This document shows, one piece after another, positions 48,482-61,786 of a stretch of DNA of 64,000 nucleotides. A program made the translations under genes and the position numbers. The notes beneath the pieces are model-generated. The model had not been told where the DNA came from. It did not search any database and saw nothing but the letters and a program-made list of their open reading frames with translations. Position 1 is the first letter of the stretch. Every line of letters starts with the position of its first letter. The stretch comes from Candidatus Bathyarchaeota archaeon (GTDB lineage Archaea; Thermoproteota; Bathyarchaeia; Bathyarchaeales; Bathycorpusculaceae), in the NCBI GenBank assembly GCA_963702095.1, contig OY969706.1, positions 2,304,001 to 2,368,000 on the forward strand, written 5' to 3'.

Positions 48482-49342
48482 TTATCTGAGGATCAGAAGC
48501 CGTAACAGGAAAACCAGCGGCACCCATTCACCGTCAACCATTAGGGCAGCTTGCAGTCGGGGGCGGGTAGATTTGAAAAAGTACCAAATTAGCAGGCTTT
48601 CGTAAATAACTCCGAATCCTAAAGTAGGCAGATATTCAGTAAAGATTGCAGTGAATAAGCAGCAGATGAACCAGACGACCAATAAACCGTTGAAGCCTAA
48701 GAGAAGACATTTGGTTTTCTTTTGCCCTAACGCTAAGGGTACAGTTAGTATACCTGATTTGCGGTCACCTTGAATATCGAGGGTGTCAAAAATTATGGTG
48801 TTGACTAGAATTTGGATGAATATATAGATGAAAAGCATGACTTCTTTGTAAAAAGCGATTGATTGTATGGCGGAGGGTAGGAATGCGCCGGTAATGCCCC
48901 AACTTAACGCGACAACAACGCTTTTGACGCCTAAAATTTCTTTTAAACGCGGTATTGATTTGGCTATTTTGATGCTGTATGTGAACCCGATCATTAAAAT
49001 TGCAACTAAGATAAGTAACGCCGTTATACCTGCGGCTATGCCTAAGGCGATGCTTACAATTAAACTAGTCACTGACGGAACAAGGTAATAGAGGGTTTTG
49101 TTAGGGGCAGCCTCTAAGCGATTGATGGCGTCTTCTTTGCTGTCGGTAGCCATGTTTAAGCTGTAAATGGAGAATGTTAAAAAAAAAGCCGCCAAAACCA
49201 AAATCGGCGAAACCTGAATTTCATAGAGGAAGCTTGCAAAAACAAACACTAATGCCCCGTTAAGGGCCAAATAAATTGAGTTGGAGAAAGCTAATTTTAG
49301 GACCTTTGCTAACCAGGCTTTCTCTTTAGGGGTTATTCCAAT
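48482..49342 (-). CDS. UbiA family prenyltransferase (start possibly ATT 49342)
   Basis: NMATDSKEDAIN and DTLDIQGDRKSGILTVP Asp-rich motifs; multiple TMs. Confidence 0.85.
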   Translation of the reverse strand: MGITPKEKAWLAKVLKLAFSNSIYLALNGALVFVFASFLYEIQVSPILVLAAFFLTFSIYSLNMATDSKEDAINRLEAAPNKTLYYLVPSVTSLIVSIALGIAAGITALLILVAILMIGFTYSIKIAKSIPRLKEILGVKSVVVALSWGITGAFLPSAIQSIAFYKEVMLFIYIFIQILVNTIIFDTLDIQGDRKSGILTVPLALGQKKTKCLLLGFNGLLVVWFICCLFTAIFTEYLPTLGFGVIYESLLIWYFFKSTRPRLQAALMVDGEWVPLVFLLRLLILR

Positions 49343-50127
49343 TATACGCTCACCTTTTCCGCTCGTTTTAAGAAGCTTTGGAAAACCTCTTCGCCCCATT
49401 CCAAAGCCCGGGGATCAATCGAAACTAAATCCATAGTGTAATCGTATTGTCCATCTAGATGAAAAAGCCCCAGGGACAATATGCTTTCAGTGGTTGTTAA
49501 CGCGATTTTTATATCATCTAGCAAGTAAAGGTTTAATCGTCCTTCTACCATGAATTTATGGAAAAGCTCCCCTGTACCCGCGGAGATTGCGAATTCGAAG
49601 GTTTTGTTAAAGACTTCCTGGGTAATAATTAGGTCAACTGATCCTCCCACGTTTAAGACTTTTTGGAACAGGCTAACAAAGTCAGGGTGAAAAATCGGTG
49701 AAATACCAGTCACTTTATTGGTGTTTTCCACTATTTTCAAGAAATTATTGTGGACTTTGGATAATTCACTACGTTCGCTTTTCACCACGGATGAGGTTTG
49801 AAGCATACCGATTTTAAGCAGCGAACTGCTGGGTATCTGGTGAATGTCATGGGTTAACCAGAAAGTCTTGAATTTTTCCATGATTTCAGAGGCTCCCAAG
49901 CAGGCGTCACATAGATGTGCTTCAATACACCCGAGGGACGAGAGACTGTAAAACCCAGAATTTTTTGTGGTCAGGTCAAGTTTCTCGAATTCTTTTAGGG
50001 CATGGAGTATGGTTGTTGCGGTGCTGTCGATTTCGTTTTTTAAGTCTGAGAGCTTTTTATCGCCCCCAAGCAGGCTAATTAGAATTTTTTGTTTGAGTTC
50101 CGATCTGATTAATGCTCGGTACTCCAT
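49342..50127 (-). CDS. Winged-helix regulator with DUF1724-type C-terminal domain
   Basis: N-terminal HTH (RSELKQKILISL...TTILHALKEF); FWLTHD, SPIFHP, LSLGLF..DG.YD and ALEWG motifs. Confidence 0.85.
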   Translation of the reverse strand: MEYRALIRSELKQKILISLLGGDKKLSDLKNEIDSTATTILHALKEFEKLDLTTKNSGFYSLSSLGCIEAHLCDACLGASEIMEKFKTFWLTHDIHQIPSSSLLKIGMLQTSSVVKSERSELSKVHNNFLKIVENTNKVTGISPIFHPDFVSLFQKVLNVGGSVDLIITQEVFNKTFEFAISAGTGELFHKFMVEGRLNLYLLDDIKIALTTTESILSLGLFHLDGQYDYTMDLVSIDPRALEWGEEVFQSFLKRAEKVSV

Positions 50128-50546: not shown

Positions 50547-50659
50547 CTTTGACCAGCATGAAATGAATGCTCTTCAGATTACGCCTAAAAAAAGATAAGT
50601 TAAGCATAACAGCGCACAGCCACATTCACTCTTCTCCCATATTCACATCTCTTTGGTTC

Positions 50660-50810
50660 CACAGGGAAACATTTATCGCGTGTGAAGAAAAACGCATATC
50701 ACACCCAAACAGACACAGAAAACGGTTGCAACCCCAAAAAACAACCGCCCCATCAAGCAGTTTTGTGAAAATTAAAAGACTCCAAACACCCAATAAAGAG
50801 AGAAAAATAG
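50660..50810 (+). repeat. Dispersed structured intergenic element family B, copy 2 (more diverged)
   Basis: GCGTGTGAAGAAAAACGCATATCACACC...CCAAAAAACAACCG...GCAGTTTTGTG...ACACCCAATAAAGAGA aligns with the reverse complements of the other two copies. Confidence 0.7.
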
Positions 50811-50830
50811 GGGGACAAGCCCTCGAATCC

Positions 50831-50846
50831 GAAACGCTTATATTTT
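50831..50846 (+). promoter_or_regulatory. BRE/TATA promoter of the aromatic amino acid operon
   Basis: GAAACGCTTATATTTT; TTATAT at 50838-50843 lies about 35 nt upstream of the leader ATG. Confidence 0.6.
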
Positions 50847-50877
50847 CTGTGACCTGAGTGATTGCAGGTTCGAAGCA

Positions 50878-50967
50878 ATGACATCAAAAGAAGCCAAAAG
50901 CAGCATCCGCAAATGGCAGTTTCACAGCTTCGACTACGGCTTTTATTATTACGGTTATTTTCCATAA
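50878..50967 (+). CDS. Aromatic-residue-rich leader peptide (putative attenuation uORF), 29 aa
   Basis: MTSKEAKSSIRKWQFHSFDYGFYYYGYFP: 1 W, 4 F and 5 Y in the last 17 codons; ends 59 nt upstream of the operon's first ATG. Confidence 0.8.
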   Translation: MTSKEAKSSIRKWQFHSFDYGFYYYGYFP

Positions 50968-51005
50968 GCCCAGAACTGACAGATTTTTTGAGATTGGTTC
51001 TGGGC
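50968..51005 (+). promoter_or_regulatory. Leader hairpin (putative attenuator) with U6 in the loop
   Basis: GCCCAGAAC (50968-50976) and GTTCTGGGC (50997-51005) form a perfect 9-bp stem, extendable by 3 pairs (2 G-U). TTTTTT at 50984-50989; SD GGGTGA at 51013-51018. Confidence 0.7.
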
Positions 51006-51026
51006 AGCAAACGGGTGACCTAAAAC

Positions 51027-52271
51027 ATGGCTAAACAACTTCCTAGTCGTAAAATCGTTGTTAAATTCGGCGGATCCAGCCTAGCCGACCACGAACGCAT
51101 GCTAAAAGCAGTCAACTCAGTGGTCACTGAAGCGAAGCGGGGCACAAAAATCGCAGTCGTTGTCTCCGCAATGGGCAAAACCACCGACGTCCTCATGACC
51201 ACAGCAGAAAACACTTCAAACGGCAAACTCCAAAAACACGAACTCGACGACATCCTCTCCATGGGCGAACGCACCAGCGTACGCATCTTCGCCGCCGCAT
51301 TGCGCAACAACGGAGTGGACGCCTGCTACTTCGACCCCACCGACAACCAGTGGCCAATCGTCACCGACGAGGCATTCCAAAACGCCAACCCCAACCTCAA
51401 AGAATGCAACAAAAACATCCATGAATGCATCCTGCCAATCGTCGAAAAAGGAACCATACCCGTCATCGCAGGCTTCGTCGGCAAAACCAAAGACGGCAAA
51501 ATCACCACTTTAGGCAGAGGCGGAAGCGACACTACCGCTTTCCTCTTAGCCGAGGGCATAGGCGCCGACCAAGTCGTCCTCGTCACAGACGCAGACGGCA
51601 TAATGTCGAGTGACCCCAAAATCATCCAAGCACCCAGACGGCTCCAAACCATAGACGTCACCACCTTAGTGGGTTTGGCGGATTCAGGCGCGAAATTCAT
51701 CCATAGCAAAGCACTCAAGTACAAGCCCAAAGACATCGACGTCACAGTCATAAGCAACCAGCATGGCGACTTAAGCCGTGAAGGCACGATAATCACTGGC
51801 GGATTAGCAACAGAGCTTGACGCGGAAATCGCCCACCCCACAGCAGTAGCGGAGATAACTGTGATTGGCAACGGCTTGTCAGCCAACCCGCAGATTATCA
51901 ACCAGATGATTGAAAAAGTCAAAGAAAACACCGTCCTCTTAGGCATGTCGATGAACACTAACTCGATTATCCTCTACGTGCCCCAAACTGAGTCCATCGC
52001 CACATTGTTCAACCAAATCCACCAGATCACAGTCGGCAACAGCGAAACCATCGCGATGGCGGTCAAAAAAGACCTTGTCTTCATCAAAACCAGCGGCGTA
52101 GGCCTAGAAGAAACTCACGGCATCATCGGCAGAATCAGTGAGGATTTACGCCTAAACGGCATAAACATTTCAGGCATCTTAACCATCACGTCGAGTATTC
52201 TGCTTTTTGTAGATTGGAATGAGAAAGAGAAAGCGCTAAAGTTAATTAAAAACGCGCTTAAAACACATTAG
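51027..52271 (+). CDS. lysC: Aspartate kinase with ACT domains
   Basis: VVKFGGSS, VVVSAMGKTTD, SMGERTS and TTLGRGGSDTTA motifs. Confidence 0.9.
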   Translation: MAKQLPSRKIVVKFGGSSLADHERMLKAVNSVVTEAKRGTKIAVVVSAMGKTTDVLMTTAENTSNGKLQKHELDDILSMGERTSVRIFAAALRNNGVDACYFDPTDNQWPIVTDEAFQNANPNLKECNKNIHECILPIVEKGTIPVIAGFVGKTKDGKITTLGRGGSDTTAFLLAEGIGADQVVLVTDADGIMSSDPKIIQAPRRLQTIDVTTLVGLADSGAKFIHSKALKYKPKDIDVTVISNQHGDLSREGTIITGGLATELDAEIAHPTAVAEITVIGNGLSANPQIINQMIEKVKENTVLLGMSMNTNSIILYVPQTESIATLFNQIHQITVGNSETIAMAVKKDLVFIKTSGVGLEETHGIIGRISEDLRLNGINISGILTITSSILLFVDWNEKEKALKLIKNALKTH

Positions 52272-52282
52272 AGGCAAAAATA

Positions 52283-53073
52283 ATGAACGTCGGCAAAACC
52301 CGCAGACTTAAAAAAATCATGCAGAAAGACAACCGCACAGTCATCGTGCCCATGGACCACGGCGTCACCATCGGACCAGTCCAAGGCATCACAGACATGC
52401 AAAAAATAACCAACCAGCTAATCGAAGGCAAAGTAGACGCCATCTTGGTACACAAGGGCATAGCAAAACGCATTGACGTCGACGGCGCAGGCTTAATCGT
52501 TATGCTCTCAGGCGCCTCAAACCTCGGCCCAAACCCCAACGGCAAAGTCCAAGTTTGCAGCGTAGGAGAAGCCCTCCGCTTAGGCGCCGACGCCGTCAGT
52601 GTACACGTAAACATAGGCGCACAGGACGAGGACAAGATGCTGGCAAACCTGGGCAAAGTCAGCGAAGAATGCGAACACTACGGGTTGCCATTGCTGGCGA
52701 TGATGTATCCAAGGGGCCCAAAATCCAAAACGAACACGACCCTGAAGTGGTGGCACACGCTGCCCGAATCGGCGCTGAACTGGGAGCAGATATAATAAAA
52801 ACCAACTACACAGGCAATATTGAAACTTTTAGGGTAGTTACAGAAAGCTGCCCAGCCCCAGTGGTCATCGCAGGGGGACCAAAATGCAAGTCTCTCCAAG
52901 AAGTGCTCCAAACCACCCACGACGCCCTCCAAGGAGGAGCTGCGGGTCTCTCGATTGGACGCAATGTGTTCCAATGTGAAAACCCAACCCAGATTTCAAG
53001 GGCGCTCTCAGCCATCGTCCATGAAGGCACCTCAATTGAGAAGGCAATGAAAATTCTCGGTGACAAACGTTGA
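52283..53073 (+). CDS. aroA': 2-amino-3,7-dideoxy-D-threo-hept-6-ulosonate (ADH) synthase, class I aldolase (frameshift in A-run 52720-52723)
   Basis: [20 protein letters not shown] and MMYPRG, then in the shifted frame [19 protein letters not shown] and GRNVFQ; adjacent to DHQ synthase II. Confidence 0.88.
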
Positions 53074-54110
53074 AGGAACTCTGGCTAGAAATCAATCCAG
53101 CCGCTTCGGCTCAAGAAAAAGAAGCCCTACTTAGCCTTGCCCACGAAAACGCTGTCGTAGTCTTGGAGAATGGCAACGCCAGTGGCTCCTCTGGCAAACT
53201 GGACATAACTTTTCTAGCCGACCTCAACGAGAAAAAAATTGCCCAACTCAAAAAAGAAGGCAAAAAAAACGTTTACCAAGTTACCATAAAAGGCAAAGAC
53301 GACGAAAACCGAGCTGCCACAGCCGCGGAACTCGGCGTCGACTACGTAATCATCAACTGCCAAGATTGGCGCGTCATCCCACTCGAGAACCTCATCGCCA
53401 AGGGCAGAGGCAAAAGCAAACTCATCGCCGAAGTATCAACAGCCGACGACGCCAAAGTCGTGTTGGAAGCCCTCGAGTTGGGCACAGACGGCGTCTTGCT
53501 CCAAACCGCCAATTCGGCTGAACTCGAAAAAACCATCAAAATCATCAAGAACCAAATGCCCAAGATAGCACTGACAACCGCCAAAATTCTCTCTGTTAGA
53601 CCAATCGGTTCAGGCGCACGTGTCTGCGTGGACACGGTGGATTTGATGGTGCCCGGCGAAGGCATGCTAGTCGGCTGCCAATCAGCGGGCTTCTTCCTCG
53701 TCGAAGCAGAGGTCAGTGAAAACCCCTACGTGCAATCGCGTCCTTTCCGCGTAAACGCAGGGCCCGCATCGCACTACACCCTGACATCGCTGCAGGGTAC
53801 ACGGTACCTCTCGGAGTTAAAAGCCGGCGACGAAGTCCTAATTGCGACCCGAGAAGGCAAAGTCCGAATCACCAACGTGGGCAGAAGCAAAATCGAGTTC
53901 CGACCGCTAATGCTCATCGAAGCCCAAGCAGGCGAAACCAAAATCAAAACCATTCTCCAAAACGCCGAAACCATCCGGGTCGTCACTCCCAGCGCGTCTA
54001 AACCCGTAACTGAACTCAAAGCGGGCGATGAGGTGCTGGTGCATTTGGCGGCGAAGGGCGGCAGGCACTTTGGCATTAGTGTGCCTGAAGAAACGGTGAT
54101 TGAGAAGTGA
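53070..54110 (+). CDS. aroB': 3-dehydroquinate synthase II
   Basis: [32 protein letters not shown] and ILQNAETIR motifs. Confidence 0.93.
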
Positions 54111-54793
54111 GCCTGAGAATCTGCGTTTCTATTCGCCCCAAAAACATGGCAGACGCACGCAACCTCATCGCCAAAGCTGAAGATGCGGGGGCTGATTTTG
54201 TTGAGGTCCGCATGGATTTTTTAGAGGAAAACAGCAGCCTCAAAGATTTGGCGGCAAACACCAAGCTGCCGCTTATAGCCACCAACAAGCTTCAGAGCGA
54301 AAACGGCTACTTCACAGGCACCGAAGCACAGAGGCTGCAAACCCTGCTGGATGCAGCGAAAAGCGGCTTCCAATACGTCGACGTTGAATACACCAGCTCA
54401 AAACGCGTGGAAACCGTCGCTAAAATCAAGCAACTCGGAGCCAAAGCCGTCGTTTCCTACCACAAATACGATGGAATCCTAAACGCTTCCAGTCTCGAAA
54501 AAATCCTCGACCAGGAAATCGCAGATGGCGCCGACATTTGCAAAATCGTGTTAACCGCCAAGCAATTCGAAGACAACATCCCCGTGCTCAGTTTCGTCTC
54601 GTTCGCTTCCACCAAAGCGAAGCTGGTTTGTTTCTGCATGGGTGAAGCAGGCAAAACCTCTAGGTTGCTCTCTCCCGCTTTAGGCGCTTATTTCACTTTC
54701 GCCGCGTTGGACGAGTGCAGCCAGACGGCGGCGGGACAGATGAGTATAAAAGAAATGAAGACCGCTTACAATCTATTAGGGATTGGGCAATGA
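54107..54793 (+). CDS. aroD: Type I 3-dehydroquinate dehydratase
   Basis: ADFVEVRMD, VSYH, ADICK, MGEAGKTSRL and TAAGQ motifs. Confidence 0.92.
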   Translation: MSLRICVSIRPKNMADARNLIAKAEDAGADFVEVRMDFLEENSSLKDLAANTKLPLIATNKLQSENGYFTGTEAQRLQTLLDAAKSGFQYVDVEYTSSKRVETVAKIKQLGAKAVVSYHKYDGILNASSLEKILDQEIADGADICKIVLTAKQFEDNIPVLSFVSFASTKAKLVCFCMGEAGKTSRLLSPALGAYFTFAALDECSQTAAGQMSIKEMKTAYNLLGIGQ

Positions 54794-55659
54794 CTATTTC
54801 AGGCAAAACCAGGGTCTGCGGAGTCATCGGCGACCCCATCGAGCACTCGTTGAGTCCAATCATGCATAACGCCGCTTTTGAAGCGCTGGATCTTGACTAC
54901 GTGTTTTTGGCGTTCAAAGTTAAACCTGCCCACGTAGCAGACGCAGTGGATGGCATGCGGGCGCTAAACATCCGTGGCTTAAACGTCACCATGCCACACA
55001 AAAAAAAGGTGATGGCAAGCTTGGACCGCATAGACCTCTCAGCCCAAATAATCGACTCAGTAAACACCATACTAAACCAGGGAAACCTGCTGTTTGGCTT
55101 CAACACAGACGGTGTCGGCGCAGTCAAGGCACTCAAAGAGAACGGAGTTGAGTTGAAGGGCAGAAAAGTGTTGCTTCTAGGCGCAGGAGGCGCAGCCCGA
55201 GCAATCGCTTATGCAATGGCTAAGGAAGCTGACGAACTCGCAGTGCTCAACCGCACCGTCAAACAAGCCAAAGCCCTCGCCAAACTCATAGAAAAAACCG
55301 CCAACAAAAAAATCGCTTCAGGCTCACTCTCGCCAAGCGACGTGCAAAAGAACCTGCAGGACTCCGACGTCTTAATCAACGCCACCTCCATAGGCATGAA
55401 ACCCCACCCCGAAGAAACCCCTGTTCCGCCGAAACTGCTCCGCTCCAACCTCTCAGTCATGGACATAGTCTACAACCCGTTAGAGACGAAGCTGGCGAAA
55501 GACGCAAAGGCAGCAGGCGCCAAAGTCGTCAGCGGAGTTGAAATGCTCATCTACCAAGGTGCAGCGGCCTTTGATATTTGGACTGGCAAGTCGGCGCCCG
55601 TTGAGGTTATGAGGAAGGCGGTGCTTATGCACCTGCAGCAGAAGGCGAAGGAAGGTTGA
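54790..55659 (+). CDS. aroE: Shikimate dehydrogenase
   Basis: GDPIEHSLSPIMHN, NVTMPHK, NTDG, GAGGAARA and DIVYNP motifs; ATGA overlap with aroD. Confidence 0.95.
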   Translation: MTISGKTRVCGVIGDPIEHSLSPIMHNAAFEALDLDYVFLAFKVKPAHVADAVDGMRALNIRGLNVTMPHKKKVMASLDRIDLSAQIIDSVNTILNQGNLLFGFNTDGVGAVKALKENGVELKGRKVLLLGAGGAARAIAYAMAKEADELAVLNRTVKQAKALAKLIEKTANKKIASGSLSPSDVQKNLQDSDVLINATSIGMKPHPEETPVPPKLLRSNLSVMDIVYNPLETKLAKDAKAAGAKVVSGVEMLIYQGAAAFDIWTGKSAPVEVMRKAVLMHLQQKAKEG

Positions 55660-56525
55660 CTGGGAAAGCTTCGGCAGTAGCGCATGGCGCAGCAACAGTT
55701 GTTAATGCGATTGCACTGGGCAAGGGCGCAGCGTTTGGCGTGGATTTGTGGACTAAAGCAGAGGTCAAATTGACAAGTGAACCCGACTTTTTCGAGGCAG
55801 AAATAACCTCAGATGCAAGTGAGAGTACACTGCTTCTTGAGCAAAGTGTGGCTCGGGTTCTTCAGCGCTTCGGAGTCGAGAAAACTTATGGTGCCAAAGT
55901 CAAAACCACATCCAACATCCCCTCAGCCCGCGGCTTGAAAAGCAGCAGCGTCGCCGCAAACGCAACCGCACTCGCCACAGTAGCTGCCTTGGGCAAAGAA
56001 CTCGGCGACTTAGAAATCGTAAAACTCGGCGTCCAAGCAGCATTCGACGCCAAATGCACCATAACAGGCGCCTTCGACGACGCCTGCGCCTCATACTTCG
56101 GCGGAGCAGTCATAACCGACAACACAAAGAGACTAATCCTCAAGCAATTGCCATTGCCCAACGACTTGGTGGTGCTATTCCATGTGCCGCCCCAAAAAGC
56201 CTACACCATCAACTCAGACGTGACACGCCTACAAACGGTCAAACCCCTTGTGGAGACTGCGTTTGAGAAGGCAATGGAGGGCAAACTTTGGGATGCTTTA
56301 ACGCTTAACGGTTTGGTTTACTCTGCGGCTTCTAATTTGAACCCAGCAATCGCCATTGACGCGTTGGCAGCTGGTGCAGTGGCTGCTGGACTCTGCGGCA
56401 AGGGACCCGCCGTAACCGCCGTAACCACCACTGATAACGTTGATAGAGTCAAAGCTGCGTTGCAGAAGTATGAAGGCATAGTTCTGATGGCACATTTCAA
56501 CAGCGAGAAAGCCAAGGTGGTTTAG
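55656..56525 (+). CDS. aroK: Archaeal (GHMP-type) shikimate kinase
   Basis: GAATVVNAIA, IPSARGLKSSS and TGAFDDACAS motifs. Confidence 0.93.
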   Translation: MTGKASAVAHGAATVVNAIALGKGAAFGVDLWTKAEVKLTSEPDFFEAEITSDASESTLLLEQSVARVLQRFGVEKTYGAKVKTTSNIPSARGLKSSSVAANATALATVAALGKELGDLEIVKLGVQAAFDAKCTITGAFDDACASYFGGAVITDNTKRLILKQLPLPNDLVVLFHVPPQKAYTINSDVTRLQTVKPLVETAFEKAMEGKLWDALTLNGLVYSAASNLNPAIAIDALAAGAVAAGLCGKGPAVTAVTTTDNVDRVKAALQKYEGIVLMAHFNSEKAKVV

Positions 56526-56528
56526 TCT

Positions 56529-57824
56529 ATGGCGGATGTGATTGTGAGGAAAACGGAGCGTTTAGAGGGTGAAGTTGAGGCGCCGCCATCTAAGTCTTAT
56601 ACTCAACGCATGGTTATAGCCGCCGCGCTCTCGGAGGGCACTTCTCTTATCACAAACCCGCTTCACTCAGAAGACACAGAGGCGGCGCTACGGGCAGTCA
56701 CGGCTTTGGGTGCAGGCTTCCGCACTGGAGACGGCTGCTGGCAAATCAAAGGGGCCCAGCCACTCCACGCCGCGGAGGAGCCTATTGACTGCGGTGAGTC
56801 AGGCGCAACCCTGCGCTTCATGATACCCATCGCCGTATTGGCAGATGGACCATCAACACTGCTGTTTAGAGGCTCCCTTGAACGTCGCCCCGTAGACCCC
56901 CTGCTAAATAGCCTCAAAGACCTCGGCGCCGAAGCCCGTGTGGGGAAAGTGGGCGATTTAGACGCGGTTTTTGTGGAGGGCAGAGGCATAGTCGGCGGCG
57001 AAACCTTCATTGCAGGTGACGTTAGCTCCCAGTTCATCTCGGGTTTAATGTTTGCTTGCCCGTTAGCTGATTCCGAAACCGAAATCACGCTTACGTCGCC
57101 GTTGGAGTCGGCGGATTATGTTAAGATGACTGAGGCAGTGCTCTCGAGGCATGCGGTTGTCGTCGGAGTTGAAGAACGTTGCATCGCCATTCCAAGCGGC
57201 CAAACCTACAAGGCTGCAGACGAGGCTGTGCCAGGCGATTTTTCTTCAGTGACTTTTCTTTTGGCAGCAGCAGCCATCACGAACTCCAAGATTACAATCG
57301 CCAATCTCGATTATGAGTCGGTGCAGGGAGACAAAGCCATTTTAACAGTGCTCAAAGGTATGGGTGTTGATGGTAGGGTTTGTCGGGGCAGCGTCGAAAT
57401 CGAAGGCAAGGGTAAGCAGCTCAAACCTATCGATGTTGATGCCCGAAACATCCCCGATCTGGTCCCAGCCATAGCAGTGCTGGCATGCTACGCAGACGGA
57501 ACCTCAAACATCACGGGTGCTAAACGGCTTCGACTCAAAGAATCCGACCGCCTGCTCACCATCTACGAGGAACTAAGCAAAATGGGCGCCAAAATAACCA
57601 TAACAGAAGACAGCCTAATCATCAAAGGCACACCACTCCACGGTGCAACCGTCGACCCCCACAACGACCACCGCATAGCCATGGCAGCAGCCGTAGCCGC
57701 ATTAGGCGCAAAGGGCGAAACAACGATCACAGACTTCGAGTGCATCAGAAAGTCTTATCCGCAGTTCCTCACTCATCTTAAGCAACTAGGAGCTGAAGTT
57801 GTTGGCGGGAAACTCGATAGGTAA
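56529..57824 (+). CDS. aroA: 3-phosphoshikimate 1-carboxyvinyltransferase (EPSP synthase)
   Basis: PPSKS, CGESGATLRF, SSQFISG, RLKESDR and DHRIAMA motifs. Confidence 0.95.
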   Translation: MADVIVRKTERLEGEVEAPPSKSYTQRMVIAAALSEGTSLITNPLHSEDTEAALRAVTALGAGFRTGDGCWQIKGAQPLHAAEEPIDCGESGATLRFMIPIAVLADGPSTLLFRGSLERRPVDPLLNSLKDLGAEARVGKVGDLDAVFVEGRGIVGGETFIAGDVSSQFISGLMFACPLADSETEITLTSPLESADYVKMTEAVLSRHAVVVGVEERCIAIPSGQTYKAADEAVPGDFSSVTFLLAAAAITNSKITIANLDYESVQGDKAILTVLKGMGVDGRVCRGSVEIEGKGKQLKPIDVDARNIPDLVPAIAVLACYADGTSNITGAKRLRLKESDRLLTIYEELSKMGAKITITEDSLIIKGTPLHGATVDPHNDHRIAMAAAVAALGAKGETTITDFECIRKSYPQFLTHLKQLGAEVVGGKLDR

Positions 57825-58905
57825 AGAATTCATGGTAACAACGTTTGGCGAAAGCCATGGCAAAGTCGTCGGCGTAGTCGTCGATGGGTGTCCAGCAGGT
57901 TTGCCGCTTAGCGAAGTAGATTTCCAAGAGGAACTAGACCGCAGGATACCCTCGGAGCCTAAAATCGTGTCAGCCAGAGTGGAGAAAGACACAGCCAAAA
58001 TCTTAAGCGGCGTCTTTGGCGGCTACACCACTGGTGCCCCCATCGCTGTGATGGTTGAGAACAAAGAAACCAAATCAAGCGACTACGACGCCATCAAAGA
58101 CTTGCCCCGCCCCAGCCACTCCGATTACCCCGCCCGCATCCGCTACGGCGGCTTTAACGATTACAGGGGAGGCGGACGCTTCAGTGGGCGTGTCACAGTC
58201 GCGCTAATCATGGCAGGCACCATAGCCAAAAAACTACTGAGCAGATATGACATTGACGTTTTAGCTTACACCAAAACCATCGGGAAAATCCGAAGCGGCA
58301 AAGCGTTTAGTGCCGCGGAAATCCGCAGAAACCGTTTTGCCGCTGCCACAAGGTGCCCCGACTTGGAGTGCGCCGAAAAGATGGAGCAAGCCATCGTAGC
58401 GGCTAAAGAGTCAGGCGACAGCCTCGGCGGAGTCATCGAGTGCATAGCATTCAACATGCCTGCGGGCGTGGGTGAGCCGCTCTTTGACTCATTAGACGCG
58501 GATTTGGCGAAGGCACTATTCAGTGTTCCCGCTGTGAAGGGCGTGGAATTCGGCGCTGGTTTTAAGTCTGCGGAGATGCGGGGCTCAGAAAACAACGATG
58601 CATTCCTTGTCAAAGGTGGAAAGGTGGTGACGGCGACTGAGAATGCAGGCGGCATCTTAGGCGGCTTATCCAGCGGCATGCCCATCGTTATCCGCGTTGC
58701 CGTTAAGCCTACGCCCTCCATTGCAAAGGAGCAGCAAACCGTGAACATGTCGTCGATGGAGAACGCTTCCATAAGCGTTAAGGGCCGCCATGACCCCTGT
58801 GTTGTCCCTAAAGCCGTACCCGCCATAGAAGCGGCGGTCGCAGTAACCTTAGCGGATCACCTGATTCGTTCAGGCGATATTCCAAAAAAGTTAAAGGAGC
58901 AATAA
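57799..58905 (+). CDS. aroC: Chorismate synthase
   Basis: TFGESHG, RPSHSD, GGGRFSGR, KPTPS and GRHDPC motifs. Confidence 0.95.
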   Translation: MLAGNSIGKEFMVTTFGESHGKVVGVVVDGCPAGLPLSEVDFQEELDRRIPSEPKIVSARVEKDTAKILSGVFGGYTTGAPIAVMVENKETKSSDYDAIKDLPRPSHSDYPARIRYGGFNDYRGGGRFSGRVTVALIMAGTIAKKLLSRYDIDVLAYTKTIGKIRSGKAFSAAEIRRNRFAAATRCPDLECAEKMEQAIVAAKESGDSLGGVIECIAFNMPAGVGEPLFDSLDADLAKALFSVPAVKGVEFGAGFKSAEMRGSENNDAFLVKGGKVVTATENAGGILGGLSSGMPIVIRVAVKPTPSIAKEQQTVNMSSMENASISVKGRHDPCVVPKAVPAIEAAVAVTLADHLIRSGDIPKKLKEQ

Positions 58906-58907
58906 AA

Positions 58908-59168
58908 ATGGATGAAATAGATAGTTTGCGTGAAAAAATCAATGCTGTTGACGAGCAAATCCTAAGAGACATAGTTGTGAGAGTAAAAATTTGCCGTGCC
59001 ATCGGCGAGTTAAAGAAGCAACATGGCAAACCCGTTCATGACATTTCCAGAGAGACAGAAGTTTACAATCGCATCAAGGAACGGGCGTTAGTGTTGAAGC
59101 TTGACCCAATTCAAACTGAACGCATCTTCCACGAAATAGTTAATATGTGCAGCAGCGTTCAACAGTAG
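58908..59168 (+). CDS. Chorismate mutase (AroQ type)
   Basis: LREKINAVDEQI...R...IGELKK...D.SRE pattern. Confidence 0.88.
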   Translation: MDEIDSLREKINAVDEQILRDIVVRVKICRAIGELKKQHGKPVHDISRETEVYNRIKERALVLKLDPIQTERIFHEIVNMCSSVQQ

Positions 59169-59196
59169 AGAACTCTCAACGGAGAGGTATTCATAG

Positions 59197-60279
59197 ATGC
59201 TCTATGAAATAAACGAGAAAGCCCTAAAACTCGAAAGTGAAGGCAAAAAAATCATTCGACTCAACCTAGGCGACCCCGACATGGCTACACCCCCAGAAAT
59301 CGTGGAGGCAGCCTACGCTTCGATGAAAGAAGGCAAAACCAAGTACTCCTCATCCTACGGCGAACTATCACTACGCAAAGCCATCGCTGAGGTACACGGC
59401 GTCAAACCCGAAAACGTTGTTATCACCCCCGGTTCGAAATGGGCGATATTCTCCACTATGTTTCTCACACTCAAAAACGGCGGCAACGTCATCATCCCCA
59501 CGCCGTACTGGACAGCTTACGACTTAATAGCAAAAAGCATTGGCGCAAAAACCAAATTGCTCCGCACAGAGATGGAGGACGGCTGGAAAATCCACCTTGA
59601 CAAACTCGAAAACCTCATCGACAGCGAAACAAAAATTATACTGCTAAACAACCCTAACAACCCCACCAGCAAAGCCATCGACGACAAAACCCTCGACGGC
59701 ATAGTTGAATTAGCCAACAAAAAAGGCGTCACCATCCTTAGCGACGAAGTCTACGGTGCCATCGCATTTAAGAAAACCAAGAGCATCCTCGACTACGGCG
59801 CAGACAGCCGCCACATCGTCAGCAACGGCTTCAGCAAAACCTTCACGATGACTGGCTGGCGCATCGGCTACTTAGTCGCCAACAAAACCCTAGTTGACAA
59901 CGTCACAAAACTTAACCAGATCACCTTCAACAACGTACCCGTCTTCATCCAAGACGCCGCACTCAAAGGCTTAGAACTCCACAAGCAAATCGCCAGCAAC
60001 ATCAAAGCCAAATACAAAGCCCGCGCCGACCTCGCAAGCAAAAAACTCTCCTCTGCAGGCTTCGAATTCACTAAGCCCGACGCACCCTTCTACGTGTTCC
60101 CAAAGAAAAAAGGGCTCGACGGTACAAAATTCACCCTCAACCTGCTCGACAGCGGCGTAGCAGTAGCCCCAGGCTCAAGCTTCGGCGACTACCCCGAACA
60201 CTTCCGCATCAGCCTAACCGCTCCAGACGACCAAATAGCAGTTGCCCTGGACAAAATCAGCGAGGCAGCAAATCAATGA
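59197..60279 (+). CDS. Class I/II PLP aminotransferase (aromatic/aspartate)
   Basis: NNPNNPT, SDEVY and FSKTFTMTGWRIGY motifs. Confidence 0.9.
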   Translation: MLYEINEKALKLESEGKKIIRLNLGDPDMATPPEIVEAAYASMKEGKTKYSSSYGELSLRKAIAEVHGVKPENVVITPGSKWAIFSTMFLTLKNGGNVIIPTPYWTAYDLIAKSIGAKTKLLRTEMEDGWKIHLDKLENLIDSETKIILLNNPNNPTSKAIDDKTLDGIVELANKKGVTILSDEVYGAIAFKKTKSILDYGADSRHIVSNGFSKTFTMTGWRIGYLVANKTLVDNVTKLNQITFNNVPVFIQDAALKGLELHKQIASNIKAKYKARADLASKKLSSAGFEFTKPDAPFYVFPKKKGLDGTKFTLNLLDSGVAVAPGSSFGDYPEHFRISLTAPDDQIAVALDKISEAANQ

Positions 60280-61148
60280 GGACAGCCGTTCTCGGCGCAG
60301 GAAAAATGGGCATTTGGTTCACAGAGTACTGCAAAGAGAAAGGCGACACAGTAGTCCTTGCTGACCGCAACCCAGAGAAACTGGCAAAGTTAGGCGACGA
60401 GTTGGGCGTTTTAACCGCTGATTTCTCAGCCGCAGTCAAAGGCGCTGACCGCGTTTTACTCTGCATATCCATCTCCAGTTTTGAGGAAACAGTCAAAAAA
60501 ATCGCCTCCTCAATCCACAAGGGGCAGCCTGTCATGGATATCTGCTCCATCAAAGAGTACCCAGTTGAAGTCATGCACACGTATCTCAAAGGCGCCCTCA
60601 CACTGGGCACGCACCCAGTGTTTGGGCCAGGCAGCAACGGCGTAGCCCACAAAGCCTACGTTTTAACCCCCACCAACGCCGAGGAAATAGCCTACGCTAA
60701 AGAATACCAGCGGTGGCTTGAAAGTGAAGGCGCTCACGTCTTTGTCATGACGCCTAAGAAGCATGATGAGTTAATGTCGATCGTGTTGGGGTTCCCACAT
60801 TTCCTCGGCTTAGCCGCCTGCGAAACCCTGCTGGAGCAACCAGCCTTCGCCGAATCCAAAAAGTTGGCGGGAACAACCTACCGCATGCTATTCACCCTCG
60901 TCGAGGCAGTCGCCGCAGAGACGCCTGACCTCTACGCTAATTTGCAGACCAAGCTGCCGGGTATGGAGAAAATTGAGGAGCGGTTCATAGCCAATGCCGA
61001 GGAGTGGCTTGAGTTGATGAAGAAAAAAGATTCCAAAGCCATCATGAACCGCATGGACCGCCTCCGCGCGATATTGGAGAAAACTGACCGTGAATACGGG
61101 AAGAGTTATGAGGATATGTATAGAATGCTTCAGTCAACTGAGGAGTAA
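60276..61148 (+). CDS. tyrA: Prephenate/arogenate dehydrogenase
   Basis: GAGKMG, DICSIK, THPVFGP and HDELMS...PH motifs. Confidence 0.9.
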   Translation: MRTAVLGAGKMGIWFTEYCKEKGDTVVLADRNPEKLAKLGDELGVLTADFSAAVKGADRVLLCISISSFEETVKKIASSIHKGQPVMDICSIKEYPVEVMHTYLKGALTLGTHPVFGPGSNGVAHKAYVLTPTNAEEIAYAKEYQRWLESEGAHVFVMTPKKHDELMSIVLGFPHFLGLAACETLLEQPAFAESKKLAGTTYRMLFTLVEAVAAETPDLYANLQTKLPGMEKIEERFIANAEEWLELMKKKDSKAIMNRMDRLRAILEKTDREYGKSYEDMYRMLQSTEE

Positions 61149-61153
61149 GCAAG

Positions 61154-61786
61154 ATGACTAAGACTTTACTGGTGAACTGTTACCTTGACAGCAACAAAAT
61201 CAACCCCCTCTGCGACGCACTCAACAAGTTCACAGTCTGCAAAACAGTGCCCTACACAAAAATTCAGAAAGACTATCGGTTTGGGGAAGATATCGCCGCA
61301 GTCGTCGTAAGCGGCTCCGAATCCCGCATAGTAAAACCTGAGGACCAAATCAAATTCAAAGGCGTCATAGATTTTATTCCAACATGCGAGGTGCCTCTGT
61401 TCGCCGTTTGTTTTGGGCATCAACTATTATGCACTGCTTTTGGCGCCAAAACCGCTTCGCTTCCCAAGCCAGTCATGGACCGGTTTGAACAGGTTAACAT
61501 TATCCAGACAGGCGACATTCTTAGCCGATTTAGAAAAGGCCAAGCGGTTCCCCTGGCAGAATACCACAACGACTACGTCTTAAAAGACAGCCTCTACGAC
61601 GCAGGCTTCAACTTGATCGCTGACTCCCCAAGCTGCGAAGTGGAAGCGGTGAAGCACAAGAGCAAGTTGTTCTTCGGCGTCCAATTCCACCCCGAACGCA
61701 TCACAATCGGAGACGAAACCCATCCTGAAGGTCATCAAATCATTGATAACTTTTTCTGCAACAATGTGAAACGACTCGGCATCTAG
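61154..61786 (+). CDS. Class I glutamine amidotransferase
   Basis: AVCFGHQ nucleophile elbow and GVQFHPE triad motif. Confidence 0.85.
   Translation: MTKTLLVNCYLDSNKINPLCDALNKFTVCKTVPYTKIQKDYRFGEDIAAVVVSGSESRIVKPEDQIKFKGVIDFIPTCEVPLFAVCFGHQLLCTAFGAKTASLPKPVMDRFEQVNIIQTGDILSRFRKGQAVPLAEYHNDYVLKDSLYDAGFNLIADSPSCEVEAVKHKSKLFFGVQFHPERITIGDETHPEGHQIIDNFFCNNVKRLGI

Follow-up and report, generated by a model that had tools for sequence, protein, structure and literature searches.

We describe here a short leader open reading frame (ORF) that precedes the aromatic amino acid (aro) operon of a Candidatus Bathyarchaeota archaeon and that is most likely, judging from its layout and its recurrence in relatives, a ribosome-mediated attenuator of this operon. 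It lies in a stretch of 64,000 nucleotides (the window: contig OY969706.1 of assembly GCA_963702095.1, positions 2,304,001 to 2,368,000 of the forward strand), and all coordinates below count from the first base of the window unless the genome is named. The comparison of loci indicates that the leader ORF is real, strongly conserved and rich in Phe and Tyr codons, with a hairpin that abuts its stop codon. Its 29 codons probably specify a regulatory leader peptide, by way of which the translating ribosome would signal to the aromatic operon how well it is supplied with charged Phe- and Tyr-tRNA; a Phe/Tyr-sensing ribosome-mediated attenuator of some kind is, in the broader wording, the likely identity of the element. 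Leader-peptide attenuation is a textbook bacterial mechanism that needs coupled transcription and translation, and transcription–translation coupling is accepted for archaea. The sensor part of the proposal, namely the speed of the ribosome on the F and Y codons, follows directly from the anatomy of the leader; the output part does not. For the latter we suggest, tentatively, a doorstop logic, in which the closed hairpin would be the off state and a stalled ribosome would hold it open.

Our analysis of the locus bore out every sequence statement of a preliminary description of the window (a TATA box, a 29-codon ORF, a hairpin after its stop, a Shine–Dalgarno (SD) sequence and a 12-gene operon), along with the coordinates. 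The features of the leader region are all on the + strand. The archaeal promoter (50830..50846), recognized from the sequence, consists of GAAAC, resembling a B recognition element (BRE), and the TATA box TTATAT (50838-50843) inside CGAAACGCTTATATTTT; among the 23 sequences of the genus extending that far, conservation of its TTATATTTT reaches at least 90%. The transcription start is expected about 25 nt past the TATA box, near 50865-50868, which would leave a short 5' untranslated region (5'UTR) holding AGGTTCGAAGC. The leader ORF (50878..50967) starts with an ATG at 50878, reads MTSKEAKSSIRKWQFHSFDYGFYYYGYFP and closes, after 29 codons, with TAA (50965-50967). Codons 1-12 specify no aromatic residue, and W, F or Y account for 10 of the final 17, forming the aromatic run W13, F15, F18, Y20, F22, Y23-25, Y27 and F28 of the translation (50914..50964). 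On the base directly 3' of the stop begins the 5' arm of a hairpin, P2 (50968..51005), with a 9-bp stem formed by the arms GCCCAGAAC (50968-50976) and GTTCTGGGC (50997-51005) and a 20-nt loop, the 3' half of which carries a T6 run (50985..50990). The sequence of this hairpin occurs as a single copy in the 2.94-Mb genome. The SD of the first structural gene, GGGTGA (51013..51018), lies 5-9 nt 3' of the hairpin and is predicted to be mostly unpaired.

That first gene (51027..52271, with its ATG at 51027) codes for an aspartokinase paralogue of 414 aa with AA_kinase and ACT domains, and eleven further genes follow it on the same strand without sizeable gaps (52283..61786), making an operon of 12 genes. 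By Pfam, these are, from the start, the aspartokinase, 2-amino-3,7-dideoxy-D-threo-hept-6-ulosonate (ADH) synthase aroA' (DeoC family, split), 3-dehydroquinate (DHQ) synthase II (aroB'), aroD and aroE, and, in the remainder, a GHMP shikimate kinase, 5-enolpyruvylshikimate-3-phosphate (EPSP) synthase, chorismate synthase, chorismate mutase (CM_2), an aminotransferase, prephenate dehydrogenase (tyrA) and a GATase. The aro operon is without trp genes. An aspartokinase of its own would tie the supply of aspartate semialdehyde for the 6-deoxy-5-ketofructose 1-phosphate (DKFP) route to the demand for aromatic amino acids. The operon aspartokinase is distinct from the lysC-type copy that adjoins a dapB-like gene in relatives (L028-L030).

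Short ORFs of this composition are rare in the genome. Only four of the 6189 intergenic ATG-initiated ORFs of 10-70 aa in the whole genome reach 10 aromatic residues per 17-residue window, and no relevant gene lies behind any of the other three. To detect the leader elsewhere, the best ORF ending 25-130 nt upstream of the gene was taken and F, W and Y were counted in its last 14 codons. As a background, this rule was applied to the 1790 ORFs of at least 200 codons in this genome; a count of 8 or more aromatic residues was reached in 3 cases, one of 6 or more in 16 and one of 5 or more in 57.

We then surveyed the orthologues of the operon aspartokinase, which were found in 23 of the 24 other sampled genomes of the genus, in 163 of 301 genomes of the order (E <= 1e-90) and in 54 of 401 genomes of the phylum (E <= 1e-80). 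From these, 90 loci of the order were fetched (27 from the genus search, 23 from the order search and 40 picked to represent other genera and families), together with 27 more from other orders and classes of the phylum, for a total of 117. First, all 90 loci of the order have a short ORF with an F/Y-rich end (median 27 codons, range 11-29); in 89 of them its stop is 46-74 nt upstream of the aspartokinase start, and in the remaining one 101 nt. Second, at least 5 of the last 14 codons are aromatic in 109 of the 117 loci, against the background of 57 in 1790 genes. Third, the leader is plain in several families outside the order (f14, 2/2; f15, 1/1; f39, 3/3; f43, 2/2; f28, 6/6; f34, 1/1), with one f14 leader featuring seven consecutive Tyr; it is weaker in f13 (4 loci), f47 and f52 and was not seen in f33 (4 loci), f17 and f54. 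Among 56 relatives' loci from named Bathyarchaeia records, 5 of which were incomplete and left out, at least 6 aromatic residues were counted in 51 of 51, including Ca. Bathyarchaeum tardum CP122380.1, a 59%-identical relative, with its leader some 100-170 nt upstream of the aspartokinase at 1597378. Thus, the expectation of the preliminary description that a conserved F/Y/W-rich upstream ORF with a downstream hairpin would recur at orthologous operons held far beyond the genus, a result in favor of a leader-peptide sensor.

The leader peptides cannot be aligned across families, as illustrated by ends such as ..SFDYGFYYYGYFP, ..FYSFSYFFYN, ..FFTYFSGYYTTF and ..FGYFYFYYFGP. Each family has a pattern of its own: ..SF[DGE]Y.FYYY.YF. 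in that of the window, ..FY.YRYFFYR and ..FYSFSYFFYN in f7, ..FFTYFSGYY.TF in f11 and ..FFGSFGYFGY in f5. What the alignments indicate to be conserved is only the composition and the position of the leader, not its sequence. Since the related genomes are not independent, counts of loci are to be read with that in mind; the weight of the comparison lies in the recurrence across families, because their leaders share no sequence. The leader appears to go with the aspartokinase-headed operon. None of three lysC-type aspartokinases adjoining a dapB-like gene has an aromatic-rich ORF before it, and three genomes with DHQ synthase II and without an orthologue of the aspartokinase, a small sample, showed at most 4 aromatic codons of 14 upstream. 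A leader linked to the pathway as such, and not to the operon that begins with the aspartokinase, was therefore rejected, as these three DHQ synthase II genomes have no leader.

The aromatic codons are concentrated towards the stop, and the N-terminal half of the peptide varies freely. Numbered back from the stop across the 90 loci of the order, codons -2 to -8 have an aromatic fraction of 0.63-0.86 and codon -10 one of 0.62; the values are 0.47, 0.41 and 0.43 at -9, -11 and -12, respectively, fall to 0.10-0.27 over -13 to -17 and do not exceed 0.06 over -18 to -24. The final aromatic codon sits at -1 in 21 loci, at -2 in 63 and at -3 in 6. Among the 1260 codons that make up the final 14 positions of these leaders, Y (373) and F (321) dominate over W (13), which fits an operon that makes the precursors of Tyr and Phe (tyrA, chorismate mutase and aminotransferase) and has no trp genes. 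The signals for translation are likewise kept. The start codon is ATG in 88 of the 90 loci and TTG in 2; an SD-like 4-mer is found 4-16 nt 5' of the start in 76 of them, whereas a control stretch taken from within the ORF gave one in 3 of 90. In the alignment of the genus, the ATG is invariant (24/24) and gaps inside the ORF come as runs of 3 or 6 columns, with 4-column gaps only at the 3' end of the ORF, in four sequences with a displaced (...TAG-type) stop.

The choice of codons bears on one alternative, in which ribosomes on the F/Y run would shield the 5' part of the message from 5'-to-3' decay, or from the loading of a termination or cleavage factor at the U-rich codons, with the hairpin as an insulator, in the manner of erm-mRNA stabilization. 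This mode of message protection is consistent with the preference of the leaders in the order for U-ending codons (TAT 253 versus TAC 120; TTT 184 versus TTC 137), which is opposite to that of the long ORFs of this genome (TAT 6280 versus TAC 12382; TTT 9173 versus TTC 12117), and it needs no alternative RNA structure, none of which was found. However, the codon bias is overstated, as related loci are not independent, and the leaders of the GC-richer families f39 and f43, read from their sequences, use mostly TTC and TAC with no U-ending bias. Hence, the U-rich TAT and TTT codons to which the preliminary description had assigned a role are a feature of the order that does not extend to these families. 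Protection also leaves unexplained both the start of the hairpin at the stop codon (87/90) and the constant reach of the run to -1 to -3, and we regard it as improbable.

The second constant of the element is the hairpin. When the segment between the leader stop and the aspartokinase start was folded for minimum free energy (MFE), 87 of the 90 loci had their first paired base at most 3 nt from the end of the stop codon. The 52 nt from the stop fold beyond dinucleotide shuffles (z < -2) in 82 of the 109 loci that bear a leader (median z -3.56), whereas the control, 52 nt upstream of the leader, does so in only 2 of 87 (median z +0.28). The P2 stems differ among families (GCCCAG../..CUGGGC; GGAAGAGCC/GGCUCUUCC; AGCUUCGAAACC/GGUUUCGAAGCU), suggesting that it is the structure of the hairpin, not its sequence, that recurs between them. 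In 78 of the 90 loci the hairpin contains a run of at least 4 T, which is predicted to be mostly unpaired and has its first T, at the median, +19 nt from the stop (interquartile range 19-23). No such run inside the hairpin was found in f5 (0/3), and none with 4 or more T was seen in the f39 and f43 hairpins that we read by eye.

Some versions of the hairpin from outside the order have features of their own. In f14 (L095 and L096), which belongs to another order, the post-stop hairpin AGCUUCGAAACC/GGUUUCGAAGCU is built from the same GCUUCGAAGC palindrome as helix P1 of the window's family (see below), and is followed by a U-run and GGAGG. In f39 and f43 (L102-L106), the leaders end in ..GGU CCC UAA GGGGACC, such that the final two codons can pair with six post-stop bases and the stop codon falls in a 4-nt loop. 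Here, GGGGACCGG can alternatively pair with the downstream CCGGUCCUC, a three-segment alternative that was not seen in the window.

The doorstop logic that we propose for these parts would run as follows. When Phe or Tyr is scarce, the ribosome would dwell on the F/Y run, and, if stalled at -1 to -3, its leading edge would lie over the 5' arm of the hairpin, which would thereby be kept open. When the supply is good, the ribosome would reach the stop and depart, upon which the hairpin would close, P1 would close over the SD of the leader, and expression of the operon would drop, whether because the transcript is terminated prematurely or processed near the hairpin or because ribosomes are hindered from entering at the SD just 3' of it. 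In bacterial work, the footprint of the ribosome extends roughly 12-13 nt ahead of the A-site codon. On this measure, a ribosome on the stop codon would cover the whole 5' arm, briefly, and one starved at -1 or -2 would cover about half of it or more for as long as the stall lasts.

The main rival to this proposal reads the same hairpin with the opposite logic: the folded hairpin would be the ON state, a terminating ribosome would melt its 5' arm and expose the loop U-run and the 3' arm to aCPSF1/FttA, and a ribosome held back on the run would leave the hairpin folded, so that the polymerase reads on. The positions are suggestive, as the hairpin abuts the stop in 87 of the 90 loci, so that a terminating ribosome covers the entire 5' arm, and the T-run of at least 4, present in the hairpin of 78 of 90, has a constant spacing from the stop (median +19 to +25); moreover, aCPSF1 is described as cooperating with U-tracts in the excerpted text of PMC8716108, and the sign of the response comes out right without a fourth segment. 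Yet, aromatic codons at -1 to -3, as seen in 90 of 90 loci, would be counter-productive under this logic, and the terminating ribosome is present only briefly. The U-run is predicted to be unpaired in both ribosome states (0.69 versus 0.63); the same values led us to reject the further candidate in which the loop U-run is hidden by pairing. Finally, no run of 4 or more T was seen in the f39 and f43 hairpins that were read, nor in f5 (0/3). We thus consider the opposite logic unlikely, and, because of the universal presence of aromatic codons at -1 to -3, we prefer the doorstop reading.

Upstream of P2, a helix P1 would engage the leader ribosome-binding site itself. Its 5' strand, GGTTCGAAGC of the 5'UTR (50867..50876), includes the SD-like AGGT of the leader ORF, and its 3' strand falls on the codons S-F-D-Y, AGCTTCGACTAC (50926..50937). 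In both the MFE fold and the RNAalifold consensus of 24 members of the genus, GGUUCGAAGC (50867-50876, holding the SD-like AGGU) is predicted to pair with the S-F-D codons GCUUCGAC (50927-50935), and P1 is also present in all 10 other genera of the window's family. The pairing of these codons in P1 accounts for the conservation of the non-aromatic positions in S-F-D. Four distant genera have a comparable helix of 11-13 bp, formed between early codons and the F-S-G-Y codons, and in some f11 sequences the 5'UTR pairs with F-S-G-Y codons. The likely role of P1 is to close the leader's ribosome-binding site after the ribosome has passed.

Several results weigh against the attenuator and its doorstop output, and we gather them here. 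On the side of the model, a stall at codon -2 would, with the bacterial footprint, free no more than some 4-5 of the 9 pairs in the stem, and a ribosome held where the run begins would not reach the hairpin. On the side of folding, the whole 181-nt leader does not stand above its shuffles (z -1.35; 19 of 200 shuffles equal it), in contrast to the part from the stop codon onwards, which does; the complementarity between the 5'UTR and the hairpin is unremarkable in the genus (mean z -0.2, n=47) and in f7 and f11 (-0.7), with -2.1 in f5 (n=3), and no conserved partner was found for the 3' arm of P2 when the 5' arm was masked. On the side of termination, the 10 nt that follow the hairpin contain a T-run of at least 4 in only 8 of the 90 loci of the order and 0 of 47 of the genus, and a scan for bacterial promoters and terminators returned no + strand terminator before the aspartokinase. 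On the side of the factor, FttA is proposed, in the excerpted text of PMC11616081, to terminate polymerases that have lost their ribosome; its action alone would give the wrong sign, and some RNA-level device is therefore needed for the right one. On the side of the genome, neither the trp operon (genome 1945153-1950642) nor the his operon (genome 2611598-2617728) is preceded by a W-rich or an H-rich ORF, respectively. The check suggested in the preliminary description, a scan for cognate-rich upstream ORFs at other amino acid operons of this genome, thus gave none at the trp and his operons, and the top T- and W-rich intergenic ORFs that were followed up precede genes for an ABC ATPase and NosD-like, CbiA-like and DUF5752 proteins, none of which is cognate.

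Two candidates for an alternative structure were examined and rejected. An antiterminator formed by pairing of the 5'UTR with the hairpin is suggestive in L086, L079 and L082 and is not general when set against shuffles. Segments of the bacterial type (1:2, 2:3 and 3:4) are absent from the consensus, which holds P1 and P2 alone, with no alternative pairing supported.

The last of the points that weigh against an attenuator concerns the stems themselves: P1 and P2 are near-invariant within the family, with one-sided wobble changes and no compensatory double change. As covariation within the family is absent, the structural case for P2 rests on the differences between families. Stems that are almost invariant within a family are typical of a sequence-specific binding site, and an inverted repeat could be a DNA operator; hence, the element might be no attenuator at all, with the ORF coding for a small functional protein or the region being a structured RNA, bound by a protein or a metabolite, that reads as aromatic codons by chance. 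However, between families neither RNA nor peptide sequence is kept, just the F/Y run, its place at the end of the ORF and the post-stop hairpin, and conservation of composition alone is unexpected for a folded protein. Gaps within the ORF come in threes, the ATG and the SD-like site are kept, and no Rfam, Pfam or NCBIfam match was obtained: cmscan against Rfam (E <= 10) gave only two noise matches on the opposite strand and no leader family (Phe_leader, Trp_leader), and hmmscan against Pfam and NCBIfam (E <= 10) gave 0 families. In light of this, we hold a non-attenuator origin to be quite improbable.

Two further explanations accept the ORF as a sensor and differ in the output. In the first, the SD of the aspartokinase would be sequestered by the stall tract or by an arm of the hairpin, in the style of erm and cat or of the mycobacterial poly-Cys ORFs, and freed by a stalled ribosome. 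There is a mycobacterial precedent for this (10.1101/834739, in its excerpted text), the SD lies only 5-9 nt past the hairpin, and the MFE fold of the window pairs the last codons (GGUUAUUUU) with the SD region around the hairpin. This outer helix, however, is missing from the consensus of 24 relatives; the accessibility of the SD..AUG region shifts by no more than about 0.1 between a ribosome on the stop and one on codon -5 in every group of the 90 loci; and the complementarity between the leader end and the SD is no better for cognate than for non-cognate pairs, since permutations do equally well in 388 of 500 cases within the genus and in 418 of 500 for the full set of loci. Sequestration of the SD is thus very improbable.

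In the second, ribosomes starved at hungry, U-rich F/Y codons would slip to the -1 frame, travel through the hairpin and terminate close enough to the aspartokinase for reinitiation to turn the gene on. In the window, a frame of 53 codons (50862-51023), -1 to the leader, is indeed open: it extends from the 5'UTR across both the aromatic run and the hairpin to a stop 3 nt before the aspartokinase ATG. Followed from a point 18 nt ahead of the leader stop, the -1 frame ends at most 12 nt from the aspartokinase start in 35 of 47 loci of the genus. Outside the genus, by contrast, this holds for 1 of 12 loci in f7, 4 of 11 in the other genera of the family and 0 of 3 in f5, and 10 of the 12 f7 loci have a stop before the end of the hairpin. 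Furthermore, the +1 frame scores almost as high (23 of 47), meaning that much of the signal comes from the low stop content of the GC-rich stem together with the stop-rich SD spacers. Frameshifting is the least probable of the explanations that we considered, and a Phe/Tyr-sensing attenuator remains our reading of the element.

The transcript data from the environment that match the region all fall outside the leader. Of the sampled words, 8% are present in three soil metatranscriptome runs of one study; over 50600-52300, their contigs match only 52206-52300 and a 32-nt piece at 50720-50751, mostly with 90-95% likeness, and therefore come from relatives. The contigs at 52206-52300 reach from the last part of the aspartokinase gene into the beginning of aroA' before they diverge from the window, being probably transcripts of related organisms.

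A few observations on neighboring and related genes complete the picture of the locus. Divergently upstream, on the - strand, lie a gene resembling FilR1-family regulators (49342-50127) and one for a UbiA prenyltransferase (48482-49399), with a terminator-like hairpin and T-run on the same strand at 50762-50743. Within the operon, aroA' occupies two overlapping frames, 52283-52795 (profile positions 1-141) and 52555-53073 (134-228), in place of which seven relatives have a single ORF of 263-267 aa; the comparison points to a frameshift near 52700-52790, be it an assembly error in a homopolymer or a real lesion. At the trp operon, genome positions 1944800-1945153 code for a conserved N-terminal part of TrpE upstream of the first ATG, GTG or TTG of the frame, which may reflect a frameshift or a start of an unusual kind; the ORF of 22 codons that ends immediately 5' of this part contains a single Trp and is not a Trp-rich leader.

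In enterobacteria, leader peptides of attenuators are known from pheL-pheA, pheM-pheST, trpL, hisL, thrL and leuL. The archaeal element shares with them a short leader ORF, end-product codons that reach nearly to the stop, RNA structure from the stop onwards and a helix able to shut the leader's ribosome-binding site. In contrast, it is found in Archaea, behind a TATA/BRE promoter and ahead of a DKFP-type aro pathway, and F and Y would be sensed about equally. Moreover, a single hairpin lies between the stop and the structural gene, for which no terminator/antiterminator alternative was found; no T-run follows this hairpin in the genus; and no Rfam leader family matches. Hence, the element appears to work like the enterobacterial leader peptides and, as far as its sequence goes, fails two of their defining features, namely alternative hairpins and a hairpin-plus-U terminator.

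Factor-dependent attenuation offers another comparison. The tnaC system depends on a conserved arrest peptide and on free Trp. As in attenuation of this type, a ribosome parked at the end of the archaeal leader could decide on the action of a termination factor; unlike in tnaC, the peptide sequence is not conserved between families, and F/Y content alone is kept. The nearest terminator-free design is that of the mycobacterial poly-Cys leaderless short ORFs, on which, according to the excerpted text of Canestrari et al. (10.1101/834739), a stalled ribosome prevents the duplex by which the downstream ribosome-binding site is sequestered. On that account, the two share a first cistron of cognate codons in a biosynthetic operon, the pausing ribosome as the sensor and the lack of a classical terminator. 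They differ in that a duplex sequestering the ribosome-binding site was tested for and not found here, and in that the leader here has a short 5'UTR with an SD. On the archaeal side, the excerpted text of PMC11616081 proposes that FttA/aCPSF1 polices the coupling of transcription and translation. With somewhat less than even confidence, we suggest that the loci belong to a phylum-wide class of archaeal attenuators, in which a cognate run up to the stop and the single hairpin there would be read by the U-tract and aCPSF1–FttA machinery, with no terminator/antiterminator pair.

A full-text literature search found no description of a leader-peptide attenuator in archaea, with subscription journals and supplements outside its scope and an older mention possible, in agreement with the preliminary description, which knew of no well-characterized case. 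Papers on the small proteomes of Haloferax and Methanosarcina speak, in their excerpted text, of upstream ORFs as merely reminiscent of bacterial or eukaryotic cases or as having a possible role, and a review of archaeal transcription–translation coupling does not contain the word "attenuation". If the class suggested above is real, the leader would be the first archaeal example of transcription attenuated by a translating ribosome, and a natural handle on the communication between ribosome and RNA polymerase. As a conserved and easily recognized element, it may serve as a test bed for this communication and for the function of FttA/aCPSF1, and it may offer a portable amino-acid-responsive switch for archaeal genetics. 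For the uncultured Bathyarchaeia themselves, it would offer a way to read their amino-acid regulation.

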